Source of the DNA: a virus
Reading direction: 5' to 3' (one strand)
DNA length: 44,016 nucleotides
Virus record (IMG/VR): IMGVR_UViG_3300038393_001495
Span: 1 to 44,016 of that record
Part shown: piece by piece, positions 2,204-44,016 of the stretch
Position numbering within the stretch: the stretch's first letter is position 1
How the letters are laid out: each line of letters starts with the position of its first letter
Notes under the pieces: generated by a model
Seen by the model: the letters and a program-made list of their open reading frames with translations, nothing else
What the model was told of the DNA's origin: nothing
Databases searched by the model: none
Position numbers and translations under genes: made by a program

Positions 2204-4120
2204 TCACGCGGCGAGCGGCACGTCCTCCTCGGGCGGGCATCCGTACGCCGAGCCCCACGAGGGACCGGCGACCTCGCCCGTCGAGGAGATGGGCACGCCC
2301 TTGAAGTCGCGCGTCATCGTCTCGCCGATGAGCCGTGCGACCTCCTCGGCGTCCTCCCGGGGCGCCTGCGCCACGAGTTCGTCGTGGACGGGCAGGAGGA
2401 GGCAGTCGCCGAGGCCCTTGTCGAAGAGGCTCACGATGGCCTGCGCGAGGATGTCGCGCGAGAGCGACTGGACCGCGTAGTTCGTGGCCGCGTAGAGGCG
2501 GTCACGGTCGAGCGGGAGGTGCCGCCCGGTCTCCGTGACGACCTCACGGGCGCCGAATTGGGCGCGCGTCTGGAGGCGCTTCCCGTAGCGCTTGATGCCC
2601 GGGAACGAGCGGTCGTAGGCGGCGATGGCCTCCTTGACCTCCGGGAGCGGGGCGCCGGTCTGACGCGAGAGCGTCGTCGCGCCGCCGCCGTAGACCTTGC
2701 CGAAGCCGACGCCCTTTCCCATCTTGCGCTGGCGCTTCGTGAAGTTCGGCCCGTAGAGCATCGACGCCGTGAAGTCGTGCAGGTCGAGCCCGTTCCGAAT
2801 CGCCCGGATCATGGCGGGCTCGGGGGCCAGGGCGGCGAGGACGCGCATCTCGATCTGGTCGTAGTCCGACGAGATGATGAGGTGGCCCGGGTCCGCCGTG
2901 AGCGCGCGCCGGATGGTCCAGTCCGACGACGGGAGTTGCTGGAGCGGCGGGCGCGAGATGGACATGCGCGCCGTCCGCGCCTGAAGCCCGCCGATGAACG
3001 GGTGGAGCCGCCCGTCCGGGTCCATGAGGTCGAGGAAGGCGTCGGCGTACGCAGTCGCCCACTTCTCCGAGCGCTTCGACCGGAGCACGGCGTCGGCGAG
3101 GAGGTTCGGCTTGCGGGCCTCGATGCGGTTCCAATCGCGGTCGAGGTCCGCAAGGGGCATGAGGACTTCCTTGTCCACCTTCAGGCCCGTTTTGGTCCGC
3201 TCGGTCAGCGTCTCGCCCATCGCGACGAGGGAGGCCGAGACCTGTCCCGTCGAGTTCACGTTCTCGACGCCGTAGCGCCGAGCGACGCCGCGGTAGTGCT
3301 CGGCCTCGGCGTGGAGGCGGTCGCGGAGGCGGCGGGTGTAGTCCTCGTCCACGCGGATTCCGCGGCGCTGCATGACCGCGAGGAGGACCGCGAGGTGGTG
3401 CTCGAACTTCGAGAGGTGCGAGACGCCCGCGCCCTTCACGAGCGGCCCGAGCGCGTCGAAGAGGCGCCGAGCGAGGAGCGGGTCGAGGCCGGAGTAGAGG
3501 GTGTAGAGCGGGTGGTAGATGTCCACGTTCGCGAAGCCGAACGGGATGTGCGGGCGCGTCGGGTGACGGCGCTTGAATGCGGCGATGTCGTCGGCGCTCA
3601 CGGTCTTCTGCCACGCGCGCCAGAGGGCCAGGAACACGTCCTTCAGGCCCTCCGAGGTGTCCGGGGCGGACTCGTCCACGTAGACCGCGGAGAGCGGCTT
3701 CAGGGAGAGGCCCGTGCCGCCCTCGTGCTCGCTCCGCGGGTCGAGGAGGTGGGCCATGATGCGCGTGTCAAAGCATCGCGGGCCGAAGTCCTCGACCTTC
3801 ACGCCGAGGTGGCGGTCCACCACGAGCCAGTCGAAGGGCGCGTTGTGCGCCGTGAACATGCGGGGCTGGAGGAGGGCCTCCCGGGCGATGCCGCCGAAGA
3901 GGTCCGCGCGGAGGTTGAACGCGAGGTCGCGGTTGCCGAATTGGAGCATCCGGAGGCGGTGGTCGGCCTTGAAGATGTCGAGGTCCGTCGTCTCAGTGTC
4001 GAAGCCGAGAACCTTGTCGTCGCGGGCGAGGAACTCCTCGAAGGCGCCGAGGTCGCTCGGGCGCTCCGGGGTCAGGATGCGGCACTCGTCGCCGCCGAGG
4101 GTGTAGGTCTGTTCGATCAT
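2204..4120 (-). CDS. family A DNA polymerase with 3'-5' exonuclease domain (638 aa)
   Basis: FDTETTDL exo motif. DYDQIEMRVLA (motif A), KMGKGVGFGKVYGGG (motif B), PVHDELV (motif C). Confidence 0.9.
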   Translation of the reverse strand: MIEQTYTLGGDECRILTPERPSDLGAFEEFLARDDKVLGFDTETTDLDIFKADHRLRMLQFGNRDLAFNLRADLFGGIAREALLQPRMFTAHNAPFDWLVVDRHLGVKVEDFGPRCFDTRIMAHLLDPRSEHEGGTGLSLKPLSAVYVDESAPDTSEGLKDVFLALWRAWQKTVSADDIAAFKRRHPTRPHIPFGFANVDIYHPLYTLYSGLDPLLARRLFDALGPLVKGAGVSHLSKFEHHLAVLLAVMQRRGIRVDEDYTRRLRDRLHAEAEHYRGVARRYGVENVNSTGQVSASLVAMGETLTERTKTGLKVDKEVLMPLADLDRDWNRIEARKPNLLADAVLRSKRSEKWATAYADAFLDLMDPDGRLHPFIGGLQARTARMSISRPPLQQLPSSDWTIRRALTADPGHLIISSDYDQIEMRVLAALAPEPAMIRAIRNGLDLHDFTASMLYGPNFTKRQRKMGKGVGFGKVYGGGATTLSRQTGAPLPEVKEAIAAYDRSFPGIKRYGKRLQTRAQFGAREVVTETGRHLPLDRDRLYAATNYAVQSLSRDILAQAIVSLFDKGLGDCLLLPVHDELVAQAPREDAEEVARLIGETMTRDFKGVPISSTGEVAGPSWGSAYGCPPEEDVPLAA

Positions 4121-4338: not shown

Positions 4339-6798
4339 TCAGAGGATGGCGTCGAGGTCGGCGCCGGTGATGGGGGATGTGACGGAGGAATCCGCCAGAG
4401 GTGCCGCCTCTGCTCGCGGGGCCTCGGGCTCGGCGTCCGCGGCCTCGGCGGCGTCCTTCGCCGTCGCACGGCGCACGCCGTCGAAGACCATGCCCGCGGC
4501 GGCGCGGCGCTTCGTCAGCCCGCGCTCTTCGAGAGCGGCGTTGAACGTGCGCTTCGTCCAGGCGTCCGCGTCGCGGATGCCCTCGTGCTGGCACCACTCC
4601 CGATACGAGAGGTAGAGGTCGGTCGCCGAGACGCCGCGCTCCTCCTCGTCGTGGAGCCACTCGCCCGGGAGGAAGCCGTAGAGCGCATCCGAGGTCTCTC
4701 GGTAGGCGCCGACGGCGTTCTTCACGACCTCCGGGTCACGGAGCCCGCCCTCGTACCACTCGACGGCGCCACGGACCGCCCACGCGAGGATGCCCTCCGC
4801 CTCGGCGAGGAGCGTCGCGCCGAGACGCGGGTCGCGCTCGTGCGGAGCGAAGTAGCGCTCCCACGGAATGAGTTTCACTCGGCGCCAGAGGCCCTCGTCC
4901 TGCCCGCGGAACTGCGGCTTGTAGTTCGAGGCAAGCATGATGAGGAACGTCGGGCGGAACTCGAAGAACTCCTTCCGCATGAAGCGGGCGGCGATGAGGT
5001 CGCGGCCCGTGACGCGCTTCAGCATCGCCTCCGCCATCGGCTTGTTCGCCTCGCCCTCGGATGCCATGACGAGGCGGGCGCCCTTCAGCGCCGCGATGTC
5101 GTTCGGGATGCCGCCCGAGGGCTTCGCCTCGAACGTCGAGAACGGCGTCGTGACGGTCGCCTCGCGGAAGACCTCCGTAAGCGTGTCCGTGAGGACGGAC
5201 TTCCCGTTCGCGCCCTTGCCGACGTGGACCACGAAGCACTGCTCGTCCGTGCGGCCCGTGATGCCGTAGCCGACGAGGCGCCGCATGTACGCCGGAAGCG
5301 CCGGGTACTTGTCGAAGACCTCGCCGAGGAACTTCTCCCAGCGCGGCGCCTTCGCGTCCTTCCGATACACGAGGTCGATGCGCCGCGTCAGGAGGTAGGC
5401 CGGGTCGTGCGGGAGGAGGTCGCCCGTGCGGAGGTCCACGACGCCGTTCGCGCACGCGAGGAGGTCGTGGCGCTGGTCGAACTTGTCGAGCGGGGTCGCC
5501 ACGTCGCGGAGGGCCTTCACCTCGCGAATCGCCGCGTCGATGCCGCGGCTGCTCTGCGAGTAGTTCGCCCAGGCACGCCACGCCTTCGCCGCCGCCTCCT
5601 GTTCCTTCGTTACGGCGCCGACCGCCATCGTCCGGGCGATGGCCGCGGTCATCTCCGCCGCCTCCTGCGCGTAGGCGCGCGAGGCGTCGAGGTCGTCCGG
5701 GCGCCACACGCCGCCGTCGAGCACGAAGAATCCGCTCTCGGGTGCGTAGCGGAGGTCCGAGCCCTGCGAGCGGGCGTAGTCCCGAAGGAAGCGCGCGTTC
5801 CCGAGGTCGGTCAGCGGGTAGGTGGACTGGTCGCGCCCGGAGAGCGCCGCCGAGTAGGAGGACTCGACCGGCGCCTCCATGATGGCGCGCACGATGGCGC
5901 GGCCCGTCGGGTCGCTCTCGCGCCACTTCGAGAGGTCGGAGTCCTCCGGGACGGCGAGGCGCGCGACCGTGACCGAGCGCTCCGTCATGCCCTGCGCGAT
6001 GGCCGCGGAGAACTGCTGGCCCGCCCGGTCGCCGTCGCCGCACGCGATGACCTTCCGGCCCGCCGCGAACGCCGCGAGGGCGTCGAGGATGGTCGGGTTC
6101 GAGGCGTTGCCCGAGCCCGCGATGAAGAACACGTCGTAGCCGAGGGAGACGCCGGTCAGTCCGTCGCCGGGGCCCTCGGTCACGAGCACCTCGCCCCATC
6201 CCGAGGAGCCCGGGAGCGTGCCGTACTTCAGCCACGACCCGCCGCCCTCGGGGCGCTTCGGGCCCTTCCAACGGAGGTCCACGGCGGGGTCGAGGGCCCG
6301 GGCCTGATAGCCGCGCGGGTTGCCCTCCACGTCGAGGAACGGGACGACGAGGCGGGGCGTGTCAGTCTCCGAGAGGCCGAGGCCCAGGCGACGCGCCTCC
6401 TCCGCCGAGATGCCGAAGCGCCGCTCGGCGTAGTCGAGGACGGTCGAGTAGGAGGCGTCCTCCTCGGCGAGCGCGTCGGCCCAGCGGTCGAGGTCGGCGA
6501 CGAGGCCCGCGATGACCTCGGGCGCCGGGGGCGCGTCCGTCGAGGTCGCGCGGCGGGAGGCCGGAACCTTCCCGTCGATGGTCATGCTCGCGAGGTCGCG
6601 GAGGGAGAGGCCCATCTTGTCGAGCACGTCGGTCGTCTTGCATCCCGTCCGGCATCGGACGAGCACACGGTCGCCGTCCTTGCCGACCGCGACGCGGAGC
6701 GAGGGGTCCGAGTCGGAGTGCGCGGGACAGATGGCGAGCCATCCGTCGGGCTGCTCCTCCACGCCGTCGAGGCGGGCGAGGAAGGCGGAGAGGTCCAT
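4339..6798 (-). CDS. bifunctional DNA primase / D5-P4-type helicase (819 aa)
   Basis: DnaG-like zinc finger CPAHSDSDPSLRV. TOPRIM-like VTEGPGDG...CGDGDRAG. Walker A GKGANGKS and Walker B LVMASEGE. Start MDLSAF at 6798, behind an AAAGGA RBS, rather than track start 6984. Confidence 0.85.
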   Translation of the reverse strand: MDLSAFLARLDGVEEQPDGWLAICPAHSDSDPSLRVAVGKDGDRVLVRCRTGCKTTDVLDKMGLSLRDLASMTIDGKVPASRRATSTDAPPAPEVIAGLVADLDRWADALAEEDASYSTVLDYAERRFGISAEEARRLGLGLSETDTPRLVVPFLDVEGNPRGYQARALDPAVDLRWKGPKRPEGGGSWLKYGTLPGSSGWGEVLVTEGPGDGLTGVSLGYDVFFIAGSGNASNPTILDALAAFAAGRKVIACGDGDRAGQQFSAAIAQGMTERSVTVARLAVPEDSDLSKWRESDPTGRAIVRAIMEAPVESSYSAALSGRDQSTYPLTDLGNARFLRDYARSQGSDLRYAPESGFFVLDGGVWRPDDLDASRAYAQEAAEMTAAIARTMAVGAVTKEQEAAAKAWRAWANYSQSSRGIDAAIREVKALRDVATPLDKFDQRHDLLACANGVVDLRTGDLLPHDPAYLLTRRIDLVYRKDAKAPRWEKFLGEVFDKYPALPAYMRRLVGYGITGRTDEQCFVVHVGKGANGKSVLTDTLTEVFREATVTTPFSTFEAKPSGGIPNDIAALKGARLVMASEGEANKPMAEAMLKRVTGRDLIAARFMRKEFFEFRPTFLIMLASNYKPQFRGQDEGLWRRVKLIPWERYFAPHERDPRLGATLLAEAEGILAWAVRGAVEWYEGGLRDPEVVKNAVGAYRETSDALYGFLPGEWLHDEEERGVSATDLYLSYREWCQHEGIRDADAWTKRTFNAALEERGLTKRRAAAGMVFDGVRRATAKDAAEAADAEPEAPRAEAAPLADSSVTSPITGADLDAIL
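4384..4417 (-). promoter_or_regulatory. phage-specific promoter-like box PM2 (embedded in the 3' end of the primase gene)
   Basis: Minus strand: GCGAGCAGA-GGCGGCACCT-CTGGCGGATTCCTCC, 56 nt upstream of GTG 4327. Confidence 0.5.
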
Positions 6799-14783: not shown

Positions 14784-14789
14784 GGCAGG

Positions 14790-14819
14790 AGTGTAAACGC
14801 GCCGTGGCACGCTTCGCAA
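14790..14819 (-). promoter_or_regulatory. host-type early promoter PE-14.8 (TTGCGA-N18-TACACT)
   Basis: Minus strand: TTGCGA AGCGTGCCACGGCGCGTT TACACT. Member of a five-copy family. Confidence 0.65.
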
Positions 14820-14883
14820 GTGAAGACGCGAAGAGGCCCCCAAGCGTCGCCGGATGGCGGGCTCGGGGGCCGGATGCGGGGCG

Positions 14884-14991
14884 GGTGTGTAGGAAGTGCA
14901 GGTTCTTCCTACATCTCCTATTCCTGTCTAGAGAGAGAGCGCCTAGAGAGGAAATAGAGAATGTAGGTAGTTCCTGCACTTCCTACACGGG
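14884..14991. repeat. 108-bp AT-rich palindromic element, copy A
   Basis: 97/108 identical to 37894..38001 by hand alignment. Perfect 16-bp outer inverted repeat gtgtaggaagtgcagg / cctgcacttcctacac. Starts 1 nt after stop 14992. Confidence 0.9.
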
Positions 14992-34284: not shown

Positions 34285-34617
34285 TCACACGAGCGAGCCA
34301 GGGTGCGCCTCGGGGTCGCGGGCCTTGCGCCTGCGTCCTGCGTTCGCCTCGCGCTGCGTCTTGACGAAGTGACAGGACTCGCCACACGTGAGGCAGGCAC
34401 CTTCCCTACCGTCGGGCGTGCCGTGGATGGGGGCTAGGTTCGAGGGGTCGTCATAGTCGCCGGGAAGCCGAGCCCGTAGCCACGCGGCCACGTTCAGCAC
34501 GTGGTCTACCTGCGTAGCCCCAGGGTGCCCGCATGCGTGGCACACGCCGCCGTGCTCCCGGAGGATGCGGTCCTTCTGCGCCCTCGTCAGACGAGAGGGG
34601 CGGCGGTGCCATGCCAT
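34285..34617 (-). CDS. HNH endonuclease (110 aa)
   Basis: CHACG...VDHV...N...CLTCGESCH gives the CxxC / DH / N / CxxC-H arrangement. Adjacent to the terminase genes. Confidence 0.8.
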   Translation of the reverse strand: MAWHRRPSRLTRAQKDRILREHGGVCHACGHPGATQVDHVLNVAAWLRARLPGDYDDPSNLAPIHGTPDGREGACLTCGESCHFVKTQREANAGRRRKARDPEAHPGSLV

Positions 34618-35371: not shown

Positions 35372-35405
35372 TGAGGAATCCGCCACGGTTACGCCACGTG
35401 CTCAC
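35372..35405 (-). promoter_or_regulatory. phage-specific promoter-like box PM7 (candidate late-operon promoter; 5' box overlaps stop 35402-35404)
   Basis: Minus strand: GTGAGCACG-TGGCGTAACC-GTGGCGGATTCCTCA. No further box is seen between here and the lysis genes at about 15 kb. Confidence 0.55.
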
Positions 35406-35638
35406 GGCACGCGACGACAGGCGGAACAGACGCGCCGGAGACCATCGGCCTCCCGCGAGTCGAGGTGGAACTCGCTCGTGGGCTTCGCGACGCCGCACGA
35501 GGCGCACGTCTTCCGCACGCCCCGAGTCCAGGCCCGCCTACGGGCCAGGGCGGCGCCGAGGAGCGCCTCCACGCCCTCCGGGTCGCCGTCAGGATGACGG
35601 GTCGCCAGAGAGGCGCGGAGGCGGTCCTCCAGGCTCAC
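35402..35638 (-). CDS. zinc-ribbon protein (78 aa, GTG start)
   Basis: KTCASCGVAKPTSEFHLDSREADGLRRVCSACRR gives CxxC-x24-CxxC. GTGA overlap with stop 35635 of the repeat protein. Confidence 0.55.
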   Translation of the reverse strand: MSLEDRLRASLATRHPDGDPEGVEALLGAALARRRAWTRGVRKTCASCGVAKPTSEFHLDSREADGLRRVCSACRRVP

Positions 35639-37350
35639 GAGCGGGTCTTCAGCCCGAGGAGGAACTCGGCGAGCGCCGCCACGTCCGAGCCGAGGATGCC
35701 ACGGAAGCCCGACTTCGCGAGGATGTCCGACGCCTGCGCCGAGACCTCCAGCCGAAGGGCGTAGTCCTCGCGCGCCGTCTCGTCGCGGACCTCGAACGTC
35801 GGCGTGGCGCCCTTCACCTCGGGCGCCGGGGCGAGGGACGACGGCTTGAAGTAGTCGTAGTCGCCGTCCTCGAACTCCACGTGGTAGTCGCCGTCGGAGT
35901 CGAGCCCGCCCTTGACCTGCCCAGCGCGACCCTCGTAGTCCGTGAGGCCGCACTCGGTCGGGCCGGTCACGAGCACCTTGTCGCCGTCCTCGAAGACGAC
36001 CTCGGCCTCCACGACCTCGGGCTCCGGGGCCGGGGCCTCGATCTTCACGAAGGACTGCGGCGCGAGGCGGTAGCCCGCCGTGACCACGAGGCGCCCGAGG
36101 TGGTCCTCGCCGACGTGGCGGACCGTGTGCTCCTCGCCCACGATGGAGTCGCCGAGGAGCCCCGGCTTCCCGCTCGGGAGGATGTTCGCCGCGATGCGGA
36201 CGCGGTCGCCGACCTCGAACGTCGGGACGTACGCGGCGAGTTCCTCGCGCTCGAAGCCCCACGACTGGAGCGAGTAGTCGCCGTCGATCTTCACGGCGTA
36301 GTCGCCGCGGCCCTGCCCGTAGCCGCGGAGAGCGGTCACGGTGCCGGTCGCGCCCGGACCCCGGACCTCCGCCGCGAAGGGCGAGGAGAGGACCGTCACG
36401 CGGTCGCCGACGGCGAAGGACGGGGCGGTCTCGACCGTCTCGACCTCGGGCGTCTCCATCGAGAGGAGCGTCGCCCACGGGCCGACGGGGGCCTTCGACA
36501 GGCTCGACGCCGGGAAGTAGGACCACTGGCCCTCGCCCGGGAACTCCACCACGAAGTCGCCCTCGCGGTCCGGGCCCTCCGTGACCGTGCCGACGAGGCC
36601 CGCGTACTTGTCCGAGCCCGTGAAGTCGTCGCCGACGAGCACGCGGTCGCCCTTCGAGGGCACGTAGGCCGGGGCGGGCTCGACGGTCAGGAGGGCGAGT
36701 TCGGCCTCGCGGTAGCCCCAGGCACGCGAGCCGTTCCCGTCGAGGACGACGGCGTAGTCCGGGCGGGAGATGCCGGAGATGTCGTGGCGGTCGGTCGGCA
36801 TCGGGACGACCGTCCCGACGTTGCCCGCCTTGCGGTAGACGCCGACGTACGTCGAGGAGACGATGCTCACGCGGTCGCCCGGGACGAACTTCGGCGCCGG
36901 GACGAGGCACTCGGCGGCGACGGTCCAGTTGCCGATGCCGACGTTCCCGGGGATGGTCCATCCGTTCGTGACGGTCACCACGTCGCCGACCTTCGGGCGG
37001 GTCGAGTCCGCGTGGTAGTAGTCCGCGTGGTCGCCCATCCCGCCGACGTAGCGGTGGAAGACCGTGCCCGCCACCACGGCGCGGTCGCCCGGGGCGAAGG
37101 TGTGGACCTCGGGGTCCGGGACGTGGACCTTCAGGTCCACGAGGCGGACGGTCTGGCGCTTGCCGCCCTCGGTCGCCTTGAACTCCGCGGCGTCCGCGTG
37201 GCGGGCGTAGGAGGCGCTCGGCACGTCGAGGGAGATGCACTCCACGACCTCGCCGAGGTCGTAGTAGTGGCGGAGGCCGCTCGCGCTTCCGTCCGCGGTC
37301 ACGACGTAGCGCTCGCCGACGACGGGCAGGGCGGGGGAGGTGCTGCTCAT
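35635..37350 (-). CDS. 571-aa protein built of six or more tandem ~65-75-aa beta-barrel-like (KOW/SH3/Tudor-like) repeats
   Basis: Recurrent F-x-x-GD(R/K)V anchors: FAPGDRAVV, FVPGDRVSIV, SKGDRVLVG, FAVGDRVTVL, FEVGDRVRIA, FEDGDKVLVT. Each is followed by G..G.V and GD(F/Y).V.F segments. Own box PM8. Confidence 0.7.
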   Translation of the reverse strand: MSSTSPALPVVGERYVVTADGSASGLRHYYDLGEVVECISLDVPSASYARHADAAEFKATEGGKRQTVRLVDLKVHVPDPEVHTFAPGDRAVVAGTVFHRYVGGMGDHADYYHADSTRPKVGDVVTVTNGWTIPGNVGIGNWTVAAECLVPAPKFVPGDRVSIVSSTYVGVYRKAGNVGTVVPMPTDRHDISGISRPDYAVVLDGNGSRAWGYREAELALLTVEPAPAYVPSKGDRVLVGDDFTGSDKYAGLVGTVTEGPDREGDFVVEFPGEGQWSYFPASSLSKAPVGPWATLLSMETPEVETVETAPSFAVGDRVTVLSSPFAAEVRGPGATGTVTALRGYGQGRGDYAVKIDGDYSLQSWGFEREELAAYVPTFEVGDRVRIAANILPSGKPGLLGDSIVGEEHTVRHVGEDHLGRLVVTAGYRLAPQSFVKIEAPAPEPEVVEAEVVFEDGDKVLVTGPTECGLTDYEGRAGQVKGGLDSDGDYHVEFEDGDYDYFKPSSLAPAPEVKGATPTFEVRDETAREDYALRLEVSAQASDILAKSGFRGILGSDVAALAEFLLGLKTRS

Positions 37351-37400
37351 GGGTGTGTCCTCTCGGTCCGTCCCACGGCGCCTCTCGCCGTGGTGACAGG

Positions 37401-37433
37401 GGAGGAATCCGCCAGTCGCCGGATGCTGCTCAC
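37401..37433 (-). promoter_or_regulatory. phage-specific promoter-like box PM8
   Basis: Minus strand: GTGAGCAGC-ATCCGGCGA-CTGGCGGATTCCTCC (9-nt spacer), 50 nt upstream of ATG 37350 and after hairpin 37445-37475. Confidence 0.6.
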
Positions 37434-37444
37434 GGGAAATGCAA

Positions 37445-37475
37445 GAGGCCCCCGCCCGGTCAGGGCGAGGGCCTC
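37445..37475 (-). terminator. GC-rich hairpin terminator
   Basis: Arms gaggcccccgccc / gggcgagggcctc with a ggtca loop. Confidence 0.55.
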
Positions 37476-37497: not shown

Positions 37498-37800
37498 TCA
37501 GCCCCGGCGCACGCGCCGCTCGTGGTTACGCCGAAGCGCGGCGAACACGGCGTCCTTGCGGGCGTAGTCCTCGCGCTGCTCGTCCGCGGTCAGGAGCACG
37601 GCGTCGAGGGCGCCGTACGCGGCCCAGAGGCTCGCGTCGTCGGCGTAGGACGAGGCGCCGTAGGCCAGGAGTTCGTTCGCGATGCCGCGGGCCTCGGCGA
37701 GGAGGCGAACGGGGTCGGCGCACGTGTGGGCGTGCGAGCGGAGGTTCGCCTCGCAAGCGTGGCAGGAGGCGGCGGTCGTGGTGGCGGTCGTGGCGGTCAT
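37498..37800 (-). CDS. hypothetical protein (100 aa) with N-terminal Cys/His cluster
   Basis: ATG 37800 (MTATTATTTAASCHACEANLRSHAHTC...). Driven by PE-37.8. Confidence 0.6.
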   Translation of the reverse strand: MTATTATTTAASCHACEANLRSHAHTCADPVRLLAEARGIANELLAYGASSYADDASLWAAYGALDAVLLTADEQREDYARKDAVFAALRRNHERRVRRG

Positions 37801-37847
37801 GTCGGGCTCCTCTGCCCTCGGGGCCCCCGTGTGGGGCCGATGAGGAG

Positions 37848-37877
37848 AGTGTAAACGCGCGGTGGCACGGCGCACAA
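37848..37877 (-). promoter_or_regulatory. host-type early promoter PE-37.8 (TTGTGC-N18-TACACT)
   Basis: Minus strand: TTGTGC GCCGTGCCACCGCGCGTT TACACT. Confidence 0.6.
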
Positions 37878-37893
37878 GTCGGCGGCGCGGCGT

Positions 37894-38001
37894 GGTGTGT
37901 AGGAAGTGCAGGAAGTTCCTACATTCCCTATTCCGTACTAGAGAGAGAGTCCCTAGAGAGGTAATAGAGAATGTAGGTAGTTCCTGCACTTCCTACACGG
38001 G
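37894..38001. repeat. 108-bp AT-rich palindromic element, copy B
   Basis: 97/108 identical to 14884..14991. Ends 7 nt after the integrase stop codon (38009-38011) and lies 16 nt upstream of the -35 of PE-37.8. Confidence 0.9.
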
Positions 38002-38008
38002 AAGGCCC

Positions 38009-39655
38009 CTACGGGGTCGTCTCCGGCGCTCCTCCGGCGTTGTGGCGCCGGGGTCCAGCGGGCGAGGTGCCGCCCGGAGGGTTCACCCAATGGATGAGCA
38101 CGCGCTCGCCCGGGTAGAAACGGGCCCCACGAGAGGGCGCACGGGTGACCGTCACGCGCTCGATGGCGAGACCGAGGAGGGCGCGACGTTCCTCGACGGG
38201 CAGGGCCTCCCATGCCTCGCGGCTCTGTGTCATGTCGAGGAGGGGCGTCATGTCGCCCTCAGGGCCCGGGAGCGTCGCGAGAGATGCTCGGGCCTCGGCT
38301 ACCCGGGCCCGGAGCGTCGGGAGGCGCTGCGCCGCCTCGTCCTTCGTCATGAGCCCCGAGGCCATGAGGTCCAGGACGCGGGCGAGGTCCGCCTCGAAGC
38401 GCGCGAGCACCTCCGCGAGGCGGTTCCGCTCCGTCGCCGCCGCGGGGTCCACGCGCGCCGCCCATCGACGGGCCACTTCGGCGAGGAGTTCGACGCGGTG
38501 CGGGTCTTCGGCCTCGTCCTCCGGGTCGATGGCGAGGCGGCGGAGGAAGGCGTCCACCACGGCATCGTCGGTCCGCCGCTCGGGCGCGTTGAAGCCGTCG
38601 CACGTCGTCCCGGCGCCCCGGGAAGCGCACGAGTAGGAGCGGTGCCCGAGGCGGTTCCCGTTCACGCGCGCGATGCGCCCACACGAGGCGCATCGGATGA
38701 GGCCGCGGAGGAGCGTCGAGGGCCCGCCGCCCGTGCCGCCCCGGGCGCCGTGACCGCGCTCGCCCCGCCTCTCGTCGTGGAGGGCCAGGACGCGGGCGCG
38801 CTCGGCCTCCGTGATGACGCCCGCGCCGACGGAGACCGGGAGGCCCTCCTCGTTCAGGTAGACATCGGCGACGTTCGCCCATCCGCCCGAGGGCGTCTTG
38901 CGCCGGAGCGACTGTAGTCCCGCGAAGCCCGGGGCCTTCAGGAGTTCGCGGATGGACGACGCCCGCCACTCGCCGCCTCGGGACGCCTTCACGCCCTCGA
39001 CGTTCAGCGTCCGGGCGATGGAGTAGGGCGAGATGCCGTCGAGGGCCATCTCGGCGATGCGCCGCGCGAGGGCGTACGTCTCCGGGTCGTGCTCCAGCCG
39101 ACCGTCCTCCGCGCGCCGGAGCCCGAGCGGCGGTTTCCCGCTCTGCCAGCGCCCCGCCTCGCGGGCGTAGCGGCGGGCGCGGGAGACGCGCTCGGAGAGT
39201 TTCTCGGCCTCCTCCCGGGCGACCTCGGCTCGGACGATGAGGGACAGGCGGGCGCGCTCGTCGCCCGTGTCCGTGCCGTCCACGCCGAGGACGCGGCGGT
39301 TCTTCCCGACGTGCCGCTCGGCGAGTTCGCCCGCCTCCACGGCGCCCTTGCGCGTCGCGCGGTCGAGGCTCCAGACGATGAGCGTGCGGAAGTCCTCGCC
39401 GCCGTCGAGGTCGCGGAGGGCCTCCTCCCAGACCGGGCGGGCCTTGCGGGAGTGGCGGCTCGCGCCCGTGCCCTCGCGCTCCGCGTAAACTCGGGTGACC
39501 TCCAGCCCGACGCGGGCGGCGAGGGCTCGGCAGTCGGCCTCCTGCTCACGCATCGAGCGCCCGAGGCGGTGCGTGTCCTTCGCGTTCTTGTGCGAGCGGC
39601 GAACGTAGATGGCGGCGGCGGAGTCCGGCGAGGCCGGGAGCGGTGAGAGCGTCAT
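38009..39655 (-). CDS. int: large serine recombinase (integrase, 548 aa)
   Basis: N-terminal resolvase-type catalytic region AAIYVRRSHKN...REQEADCRALA...LIVWSLDRATRKG. Long C-terminal domain with a Cys cluster CASCG...SYSCASRG...C. Confidence 0.85.
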   Translation of the reverse strand: MTLSPLPASPDSAAAIYVRRSHKNAKDTHRLGRSMREQEADCRALAARVGLEVTRVYAEREGTGASRHSRKARPVWEEALRDLDGGEDFRTLIVWSLDRATRKGAVEAGELAERHVGKNRRVLGVDGTDTGDERARLSLIVRAEVAREEAEKLSERVSRARRYAREAGRWQSGKPPLGLRRAEDGRLEHDPETYALARRIAEMALDGISPYSIARTLNVEGVKASRGGEWRASSIRELLKAPGFAGLQSLRRKTPSGGWANVADVYLNEEGLPVSVGAGVITEAERARVLALHDERRGERGHGARGGTGGGPSTLLRGLIRCASCGRIARVNGNRLGHRSYSCASRGAGTTCDGFNAPERRTDDAVVDAFLRRLAIDPEDEAEDPHRVELLAEVARRWAARVDPAAATERNRLAEVLARFEADLARVLDLMASGLMTKDEAAQRLPTLRARVAEARASLATLPGPEGDMTPLLDMTQSREAWEALPVEERRALLGLAIERVTVTRAPSRGARFYPGERVLIHWVNPPGGTSPAGPRRHNAGGAPETTP

Positions 39656-41563: not shown

Positions 41564-41600
41564 CGGGGGCCTCCTCTGGCCTCGTTGGGGTGATGAGGAG

Positions 41601-41630
41601 AGTGTAAACGCCTCGTGGCACGGTGCGCAA
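41601..41630 (-). promoter_or_regulatory. host-type early promoter PE-41.6 (TTGCGC-N18-TACACT)
   Basis: Minus strand: TTGCGC ACCGTGCCACGAGGCGTT TACACT. Confidence 0.6.
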
Positions 41631-41676
41631 CACGAAGGGCCCCCGCGTGTCGCGAGGGCCCTCCGGGCGGTTCGGG

Positions 41677-42270: not shown

Positions 42271-42318
42271 GGTGGGCCTCCTCTGGCCTCGTGGCCCGCG
42301 GTTGGGGCCGATGACAGG

Positions 42319-42348
42319 AGTGTAAACGCACCGTGGCACGGTACGCAA
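42319..42348 (-). promoter_or_regulatory. host-type early promoter PE-42.3 (TTGCGT-N18-TACACT)
   Basis: Minus strand: TTGCGT ACCGTGCCACGGTGCGTT TACACT. Confidence 0.6.
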
Positions 42349-42390
42349 ATCGAGAACGGGCGAGCCTCGGAGAGAGGCCCGCCCGCTCGG

Positions 42391-43139: not shown

Positions 43140-43186
43140 GTGGGGCCTCCTCTGGCCTCGGCGCCGTGGTTCGGCGCGGTAGGACG

Positions 43187-43216
43187 AGTGTAAACGCGCC
43201 GTGGCACGGCGCGCAA
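43187..43216 (-). promoter_or_regulatory. host-type early promoter PE-43.2 (TTGCGC-N18-TACACT) with perfect 17-bp palindrome in the spacer
   Basis: Minus strand: TTGCGC GCCGTGCCACGGCGCGTT TACACT. Palindrome gcgccgtg-g-cacggcgc at 43196-43212. Confidence 0.65.
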
Positions 43217-43298
43217 CTCGCGACACGCAAAGGCCCCCGCCGCCCTCGGGAAGTGAGGACGACGGGGGCCAGTAGTGAAGGATGCGGCGGAACCTTTC

Positions 43299-43787: not shown

Positions 43788-43978
43788 CGCTCGATCCCGA
43801 GGGCCAGGGCGAACTCGGAGGCGACGCCCCGGAGGGCGTACGCGACGCGCCGGTCCGCGAGTGCCTCGATGCGGTAGCCGTCGCTCACGTCGGCGAGGAG
43901 CCCCGAGGAGCGGGCGTCGGCGTCGTGCCGGTCGGCCTGCGTGTTCAGGGCGTCGATGATGGCCTCCACGGGGGTCAT
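43784..43978 (-). CDS. hypothetical protein (64 aa), spans the circular junction repeat
   Basis: ATG 43978 corresponds to position 89 of the window. ATGA overlap with the stop of gene 86..439 when the circle is closed. Confidence 0.55.
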   Translation of the reverse strand: MTPVEAIIDALNTQADRHDADARSSGLLADVSDGYRIEALADRRVAYALRGVASEFALALGIER

Positions 43979-44016
43979 CGGGTCAGCCCCACGACGACGA
44001 CGTTCCCGCTCTGCGG
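43890..44016. repeat. Terminal direct repeat copy 2 (identical to 1..127)
   Basis: See copy 1. Confidence 0.95.

Follow-up and report, generated by a model that had tools for sequence, protein, structure and literature searches.

In a 44,016-nucleotide stretch of viral DNA (IMG/VR record IMGVR_UViG_3300038393_001495, positions 1 to 44,016; hereafter the window), we find two overlapping genes, one encoding a 571-amino-acid protein modelled as a string of seven SH3-like barrels (the array protein) and the other a 78-amino-acid protein with a predicted zinc ribbon (the partner). They form a real, well-delimited and rare accessory pair. The reading we favour, to which we give a probability of roughly 40%, is that the array protein is a multivalent protein-binding adaptor of the lytic cycle that is paired with the zinc-ribbon protein. 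It would be a cytoplasmic ‘beads-on-a-string’ adaptor produced in lytic growth, with every barrel binding a short peptide, or a surface, on a protein of the host or the phage; the targets could be one protein or several, and capture would be multivalent. The helical hairpin at the tail of the array would pair with a hairpin in the partner and thereby tether the acidic array to the basic zinc-ribbon protein, while gain, loss and reordering of barrels would represent adaptation to a changing target, for example in host takeover or counter-defence.

Several lines of evidence lead to this reading. That the barrels are protein- or peptide-binding modules is suggested by analogy with the REP domain of Mind bomb 1 (MIB1), which binds a short epitope in the tails of its ligands (PMC11887331). 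Pairing is suggested by the GTGA overlap of the two genes, which recurs across related loci, and by helical hairpins predicted in both proteins. The absence of a hydrophobic segment points to the cytoplasm. Finally, lytic expression would fit the promoter-like box in front of the array gene, a box also found before the genes for primase/helicase and DNA polymerase and before the gene block running into the terminase genes, and the terminator that insulates the array gene.

An acidic protein of seven barrels and a helical tail

The array gene and the units of its product are laid out as follows.

35635..37350, minus strand: coding sequence of the 571-amino-acid SH3-like array protein, ATG start
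37358..37364, minus strand: Shine-Dalgarno sequence GAGAGGA of the array gene, 8 nt upstream of the start
37111..37332, minus strand: barrel R0 (residues 7-80), divergent, present only in four of nine family sequences (window, P0001, P0002, P0003)
36895..37104, minus strand: barrel R1 (residues 83-152), invariant family core, with conserved F98, H108 and RPKVGDV motif
36679..36894, minus strand: barrel R2 (residues 153-224), canonical repeat in the invariant core
36481..36666, minus strand: barrel R3 (residues 229-290), canonical, with the C-terminal Mind-bomb-REP-like motif W-S-Y-F-P-A-S-S-L-S-K-A
36229..36423, minus strand: barrel R4 (residues 310-374), canonical, restricted to the window phage and its 99% twin P0001
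36031..36222, minus strand: barrel R5 (residues 377-440), divergent ‘NILPSGKPG’ type
35815..35997, minus strand: barrel R6 (residues 452-512), canonical repeat
35638..35775, minus strand: C-terminal helical hairpin (residues 526-571; helices 527-546 and 554-570)

The third-position GC of this reading frame is 0.98. Its product is acidic, with an isoelectric point (pI) of 4.71 and a net charge of -34, and pI values across the family range from 4.3 to 5.6. Hydropathy over 19 residues peaks at 1.33, which indicates that a signal peptide or transmembrane segment is absent.

We compared the units pairwise by Smith-Waterman alignment, expressing each score as a z value against 300 shuffles. R2 matches R4 (z = 16.2, 44% identity), R3 matches R6 (z = 13.2, 48% identity) and R2 matches R3 (z = 7.4), and iterated profiles join these four units to the extra units Ra, Rb and Rd of homologues at E-values (E) of 1e-5 to 1e-24. 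The similarity of R0, R1 and R5 to the other units was below significance (z < 4). We conclude that R2, R3, R4 and R6 are homologous and that R0, R1 and R5 are alike in fold only. The repeat consensus reads AP-x-F-x-x-GDRV-x-V..G..F.G.....G.VGTV....D.DGDY.V.F..DG...YF.P..LA. Self-BLASTP of the array protein returned the trivial self-match only; shuffle-based alignment and iterated profiles were needed to reveal the repeats.

The AlphaFold2 model of the array protein has a mean predicted local distance difference test score (pLDDT) of 71.6 and a predicted TM-score (pTM) of 0.27. It consists of seven small beta-barrels of five to six strands each, followed by a terminal helical hairpin. The barrels are modelled at pLDDT 70-89, and each unit has an SH3-like strand pattern with a short helical turn preceding the last strand; the linkers between them, rich in Pro, Glu, Ala and Val, have pLDDT below 50. 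A pTM of 0.27 is what one would expect where the beads are independent of one another.

A preliminary description of the locus, made from the letters of the DNA alone, had placed the gene and its strand correctly, and the anchors that it proposed for the repeats, F-x-x-GD(R/K)V, G..G.V and GD(F/Y).V.F, reappear in our consensus. Its guess of a KOW-, SH3- or Tudor-like unit was right at the level of the fold, as AlphaFold2 and Foldseek both point to SH3-type barrels, and the distinct helical tail that it noted corresponds to the modelled hairpin, which is conserved in related phages. Its count of ‘six or more’ repeats holds by fold, with seven barrels, and does not hold by sequence, where internal repetition is statistically supported for four units (z = 7-16).

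The nearest sequence family is the MIB1 REP domain

Repeat profile A5 aligned over the whole unit with the MIB1 REP domain among PDB sequences (4TSE, E = 5.3e-7; 4XI6, E = 7.5e-7), and the alignment includes the closing W/Y-F-x-P-x-x-L motif. The corresponding Pfam family, SH3_15 (PF18346), was found in the array protein at 18.2 bits, which misses the gathering cut-off of 24 (E = 0.0032), and in two of 18 single repeats (best E = 5.9e-4); no single repeat reached a family threshold in Pfam. Weak profile matches in the PDB were to the ferredoxin-thioredoxin reductase variable chain (2e-3), YorP (7e-3), nitrile hydratase beta and eL21. Pfam, PHROGs, NCBIfam and PADLOC gave nothing above threshold for the array protein; in Pfam, neither the whole protein nor the 18 single repeats matched Tudor or Agenet families, and the protein had no match to SH3b families or enzyme domains. 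Among 71 distant proteins that share the repeat, Pfam matches were confined to the SH3 clan (NHase_beta_C in 22, SH3_15 in 19, KOW4_SPT5 in eight and KOW in seven), and no enzymatic domain recurred. We therefore place the repeat in the SH3 fold group as an unclassified member, with SH3_15 as its nearest family.

In a Foldseek search of the PDB with the array model, Spt5 KOW arrays from RNA polymerase II elongation complexes came top (E = 5.6e-11); other matches were the MZM-REP region of Mind bomb 1 (4XI6, E = 1.2e-7; 4TSE, E = 2.3e-4), UBE2O, the SETDB1 triple Tudor, Agenet tandems and Kin17. All of these have TM-scores of about 0.1, so the match concerns the beads and not their arrangement. 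The similarity of the whole model to Spt5 KOW and Tudor/Agenet arrays reflects the common SH3-type fold. A profile of the helical tail found nothing in the PDB (best E = 0.54).

The Spt5 match raises the alternative of a KOW-like factor whose barrels would attach to the RNA polymerase or ribosomes of the host, perhaps adapting them to the unusual promoter class of the phage. The KOW and KOW4_SPT5 matches among the 71 distant relatives are in keeping with such a factor, as is one relative that its source names NusG. Moreover, most lytic genes have a box unlike sigma-70 promoters in front of them, and among the genes of the window none was recognised as coding for a phage RNA polymerase or sigma factor. 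We nevertheless think this alternative unlikely. With TM-scores near 0.10 and a root-mean-square deviation near 30 Å, what is shared with Spt5 is a string of barrels and not an assembly. The array protein is acidic and has no Pfam KOW (PF00467) match at E <= 1 (one of 18 single repeats matched at E = 0.041) and no NGN domain match in Pfam, and its model holds only barrels, linkers and the helical hairpin. In addition, the array gene itself lies behind the box, and its product therefore cannot be the primary activator of that box class. The preliminary description had hinted at binding to nucleic acids or polymerases; the lack of a KOW, Tudor or NGN match, the pI of 4.7 and a nearest family that binds peptides leave that hint unsupported.

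The SH3-like fold, taken alone, would also suit a cell-wall-binding protein of the bacterial SH3b type that acts with the lysis system. We rejected this candidate, which now seems extremely improbable: the array protein lacks a signal peptide, a membrane segment and a catalytic domain and matches no SH3b family, and its gene lies outside the lysis region.

A small zinc-ribbon protein is encoded in overlap with the array gene

The second gene of the pair begins within the stop codon of the first.

35402..35638, minus strand: coding sequence of the 78-amino-acid CxxC...CxxC partner, GTG start

The GTG of the partner overlaps the TGA of the array gene as GTGA, an arrangement already pointed out in the preliminary description, and both the overlap and the partner are kept in seven of seven loci. 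No GGAGG-like Shine-Dalgarno sequence precedes the GTG, which, together with the overlap, fits translational coupling. The partner is basic (pI 9.67), and its predicted structure comprises an N-terminal helical hairpin (residues 3-14 and 20-40) followed by a C4 zinc ribbon (C45, C48, C71 and C74). Its model found nothing in the PDB below E = 0.9 by Foldseek, its profile found nothing significant among PDB sequences, and a search for homologues returned a single match.

The best PHROG match of the partner is to a Lar-like restriction alleviation protein (phrog_5558, E = 5.7e-8). This brings up an anti-restriction or DNA-mimic pair, in which the elongated acidic array and a zinc-ribbon partner akin to Lar would inhibit a host nuclease at an early stage of infection. 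The net charge of the array would be in line with such a role, hypervariability suits counter-defence, and the pair is located close to the end of the genome, with the HNH and terminase genes a short way downstream; by analogy with lambda, the end carrying the pair would enter the cell first. However, the PHROG match is limited to the 39-residue ribbon (partner residues 38-76, profile positions 61-99 of 130), and the ribbon, again by itself, also matches endonuclease VII and HNH PHROGs. Pfam finds no Lar domain in the partner, and PADLOC returns nothing meaningful, with a single chance-level Cas10 match for the partner (E = 0.072). The charge density of the array, -34 over 571 residues, is well under that of known DNA mimics, and its gene lies behind the phage-type box and not behind the operator-bearing, sigma-70-like class of promoter. 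Taken together, these points make an anti-restriction pair quite improbable. As for endonuclease VII and HNH nucleases, their His-Me finger catalytic core is absent from the partner, where only the helical hairpin and the C4 ribbon are present and Pfam His_Me_b4a2 scores E = 0.11.

Beside more distant SH3-array proteins the zinc-ribbon partner was absent in three of three cases examined. Downstream of the array genes of P0144, P0040 and P0035 there is in each case a gene that overlaps by four bases, belongs to another family and encodes no zinc ribbon. Downstream genes of this kind (L013 2427-3104, L014 1806-2198 and L015 1690-2136) have in common the motif H-DP-x-(I/V)-N-x-F-x-AM and may represent a different conserved partner of the distant arrays.

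Barrels turn over between closely related phages

The family is small. Among 5.8 billion clustered proteins we found eight homologues of the array protein, all metagenomic, and among 1.84 billion representatives six orthologues at E < 1e-30. A single locus came from IMG/VR, and the search of 185,579 species-representative reference genomes gave no relative; likewise, megablast of the region and tblastn of the array protein and two distant relatives found no match in 50,697 GenBank phage records. The order of domains in the family is given below.

Window: R0-R1-R2-R3-R4-R5-R6-tail
P0002: Ra-R0-R1-R2-R3-R5-R6-tail
P0003: Ra-Rb-R0-R1-R2-R3-R5-tail
P0004: Ra-Rd-R1-R2-R5-R3-tail
P0005 and P0006: Rb-Rc-R1-R2-R3-tail
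P0007: Ra-Rb-R1-R2-R3-tail
P0008: Rc-R1-R2-R3-tail

R1-R2, one canonical barrel and the tail are invariant across the family, and its best-conserved parts are the R1-R2 core and the helical hairpin tail. The core is found only in this clade of eight proteins; a weaker helical tail occurs in a few more distant relatives. Compared with their counterparts in two related loci, L003 and L001, the integrase, HNH, terminase and portal proteins of the window show 84-92% identity. Identity is 73-81% for the zinc-ribbon partner and only about 50%, over the alignable part, for the array protein, which also differs in domain order. Barrels are gained, lost and reordered between phages whose flanking genes are 84-92% identical.

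In all homologue loci examined, the array gene lies between the serine integrase gene and the HNH/terminase genes, and these neighbours on either side suggest two further alternatives. On the integrase side, the array gene is within 1 kb of the large serine integrase gene in all loci, as might suit a recombination directionality factor for that enzyme; the known directionality factors of serine integrases are mutually unrelated. Against this, the integrase is 86-89% conserved among related loci while the array protein is reshuffled, one or two genes intervene, and the array protein is much larger than known factors. We rejected this candidate as well and regard it as scarcely credible.

On the terminase side, the array protein could be a virion-associated accessory protein (a decoration, scaffold-like or ejected protein) encoded beside the packaging genes. 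Some 1.7 kb separate its gene from the small-terminase gene downstream, and both point the same way; the same class of box precedes the block leading into the terminase genes, and decoration proteins are typically arrays of small beta domains. Yet no structural family of PHROGs or Pfam matches the array protein, including the structural or tail families that the preliminary description had named as evidence against its own account. Boxes of its own and about 390 nt separate the array gene from the next gene, and capsid and portal genes are 86-92% conserved in related loci while the array protein alters its architecture. The distant actinophage relatives P0013, P0144, P0040 and P0035 are found among early or accessory genes, and the loci of P0013 and P0144 also have a serine integrase gene. 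A structural or tail protein was rejected on these points, and a virion-associated role in general appears improbable.

The pair has its own regulatory cassette

The signals around the pair, in the order of transcription, are the following.

37445..37475, minus strand: intrinsic-terminator-like hairpin with a 13-bp stem (11 GC pairs), then TTGCATTT
37402..37433, minus strand: promoter-like box PM8, GTGAGCAGC-N13-CTGGCGGATTCCTC, conserved upstream of orthologues
37402-37415: plus-strand sequence of box PM8, GAGGAATCCGCCAG
37373..37393, minus strand: hairpin CCACGGCG-AGAG-GCGCCGTGG in the 5' untranslated region, between the box and the Shine-Dalgarno sequence
35373..35405, minus strand: promoter-like box PM7, a one-mismatch copy (core copy 35373-35386)

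The terminator-like hairpin ends an upstream 100-amino-acid gene and is conserved in related loci. Like the GTGA overlap, a terminator, a box and a hairpin in the 5' untranslated region recur upstream of the array gene in seven of seven loci. The terminator, PM8 and PM7 had been described before as flanking the pair; we find all of them, conserved in related phages. The upstream half of PM7 overlaps the stop codon of the partner, an arrangement repeated in L003, and this copy precedes a 91-amino-acid gene, the HNH gene and the terminase genes.

The window contains eight copies of the box, where 0.65 would be expected by chance (plus-strand starts 2090, 4385, 6832, 8491, 10119, 14356, 35373 and 37402). 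The copies stand 3-52 nt, and for the most part about 32-38 nt, ahead of minus-strand start codons. The genes behind them are those for primase/helicase and DNA polymerase, three others, the array gene and the 91-amino-acid gene that leads into HNH and terminase. The motif is unlike a sigma-70 promoter, and we regard it as a putative promoter. The hairpin in the 5' untranslated region is peculiar to the PM8 copy. At the same position L001 and L003 have a different hairpin, CCCGCC-ACGAG-GGCGGG; that a hairpin is kept despite the changed sequence suggests that its structure matters.

A second motif, TTGCGC-N18-TACACT on the minus strand with the palindromic spacer GCGCCGTGCCACGGCGC, has five copies in the window (14789-14841, 37845-37881, 41600-41652, 42318-42370 and 43186-43238). 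These look like operator-controlled, sigma-70-type early promoters. One copy stands ahead of the 100-amino-acid gene just upstream of the array gene.

Weighing the adaptor reading

Several points count against a lytic-cycle adaptor. The binding function is an extrapolation from a distant family, and the array protein misses the Pfam cut-off of that family. Domain shuffling could reflect relaxed constraint instead of an arms race. Four-base overlaps are common in phage operons, and distant arrays have one with an unrelated downstream gene, which makes the overlap weak evidence for a complex.

A more specific form of the adaptor reading, which we hold to be doubtful, is a module for host takeover or counter-defence. 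Here reshuffled ‘reader’ barrels, with a zinc-ribbon protein held at the tail, would capture more than one copy or more than one kind of host protein simultaneously, candidates being RNA polymerase subunits, nucleoid proteins and defence effectors, and swaps of barrels would retarget the module. If this were true, many uncharacterised SH3-array proteins of other phages could follow the same logic of retargetable capture. A retargetable scaffold would account for an architecture that is widespread in phages and might become a source of modular binders; otherwise, the pair would be an ordinary accessory gene set. Tandem SH3-like arrays are a recurrent and unstudied class of phage ‘dark matter’ proteins, and this clade is well suited to their study, having clear domain boundaries, an invariant core beside variable barrels, a fixed small partner and a defined regulatory cassette. 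Its natural variants, in phages otherwise about 90% identical, allow the function of individual barrels to be compared directly.

The surrounding phage genome

The first and last 127 bp of the window are an exact repeat (1-127 and 43890-44016), which shows that the assembly is circularly closed and that the phage genome, about 43.9 kb long, is complete. Its GC content is 71%, and gene calling based on third-position GC places almost every gene on the minus strand; the phage is one that infects high-GC bacteria. Read as transcribed, the genes come in the order small terminase, large terminase, portal, capsid and tail genes, replication genes, small early genes and integrase. From this gene order, a position of the array gene between the lysogeny module and a putative cos site is plausible. 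The genes named in the text are these.

39655..38009, minus strand: large serine integrase gene
37800..37498, minus strand: 100-amino-acid gene between the integrase and array genes
After the zinc-ribbon gene and before the HNH gene: 91-amino-acid gene
34617..34285, minus strand: HNH endonuclease gene, leading back to the small-terminase gene
6798..4339, minus strand: DNA polymerase gene
4120..2204, minus strand: primase/helicase gene

GenBank phages include no close relative. The best large-terminase match, at 48% identity, is to Microbacterium phage Footloose, by this measure the closest phage with an annotation, and no gene comparable to the array gene was found at its right end. By megablast, the window matches GenBank phages in the region of the polymerase and primase genes and in one SprT-like gene, and nowhere else.

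The island between the integrase and array genes is swapped between related phages (window 37498-38008; L001 8766-9855; L003 8762-9856). It holds one unrelated 100-amino-acid gene in the window and, in the relatives, a 167-amino-acid gene and a Cys-rich 150-amino-acid gene. Directly after the integrase stop codon lies a near-perfect palindrome of about 100 nt (37894-38001), which is CT/AT-rich in this 71% GC genome and folds as DNA at -34.7 kcal/mol (z = -10.7). A second copy, 90% identical, is found 23 kb away at 14884-14991, and the arm GTGTAGGAAGTGCAGGAAC is conserved after the integrase gene in eight related loci. The palindrome could be attP or another recombination or regulatory site.

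Comparison with known systems

The closest known counterpart, MIB1 REP (PF18346; PDB 4TSE and 4XI6), likewise has tandem SH3-like barrels, with GD-x-V in strand 1 and G-x-VG-x-V in strand 2. It differs in that two REP barrels are embedded in a eukaryotic E3 ligase, whereas the array protein belongs to a phage, has no ligase part and combines a helical tail with seven barrels that fall into at least four sequence types. The KOW arrays of Spt5 and NusG resemble it as SH3-fold barrels strung on linkers and are set apart by the acidity of the array protein, its lack of KOW and NGN matches and the low TM-scores. Tudor and Agenet readers (SETDB1, AGDP3 and ADCP1) have tandem barrels of the same fold group without a match in sequence. 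YorP of prophage SPbeta (PDB 2HEQ) and the ferredoxin-thioredoxin reductase variable chain are single-barrel SH3-like proteins, and their similarity to the repeat is marginal.

Literature searches on phage SH3/KOW arrays, SH3_15, YorP and phiC31 early promoters yielded nothing relevant to phage arrays. In BFVD, by comparison, the array model has 56 matches at E <= 1e-3, to uncharacterised phage proteins with tandem SH3-like barrels, and 198 protein clusters share the repeat. The preliminary description considered the architecture unfamiliar among phage modules, a view that these dozens of similar proteins overturn. Examples are found in Escherichia phage Pollock (A0A0A0YR23), Pseudomonas phage ventosus (A0A2H4P814) and the Arthrobacter phages Liebe and Bumble; their architecture is like that of the array protein, but orthology to it is undetectable. 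Tandem SH3-like arrays are thus common among uncharacterised phage proteins, an architecture already known in phages without a function attached to it, and what is new here is the clade defined by the R1-R2 core, the tail and the zinc-ribbon partner.

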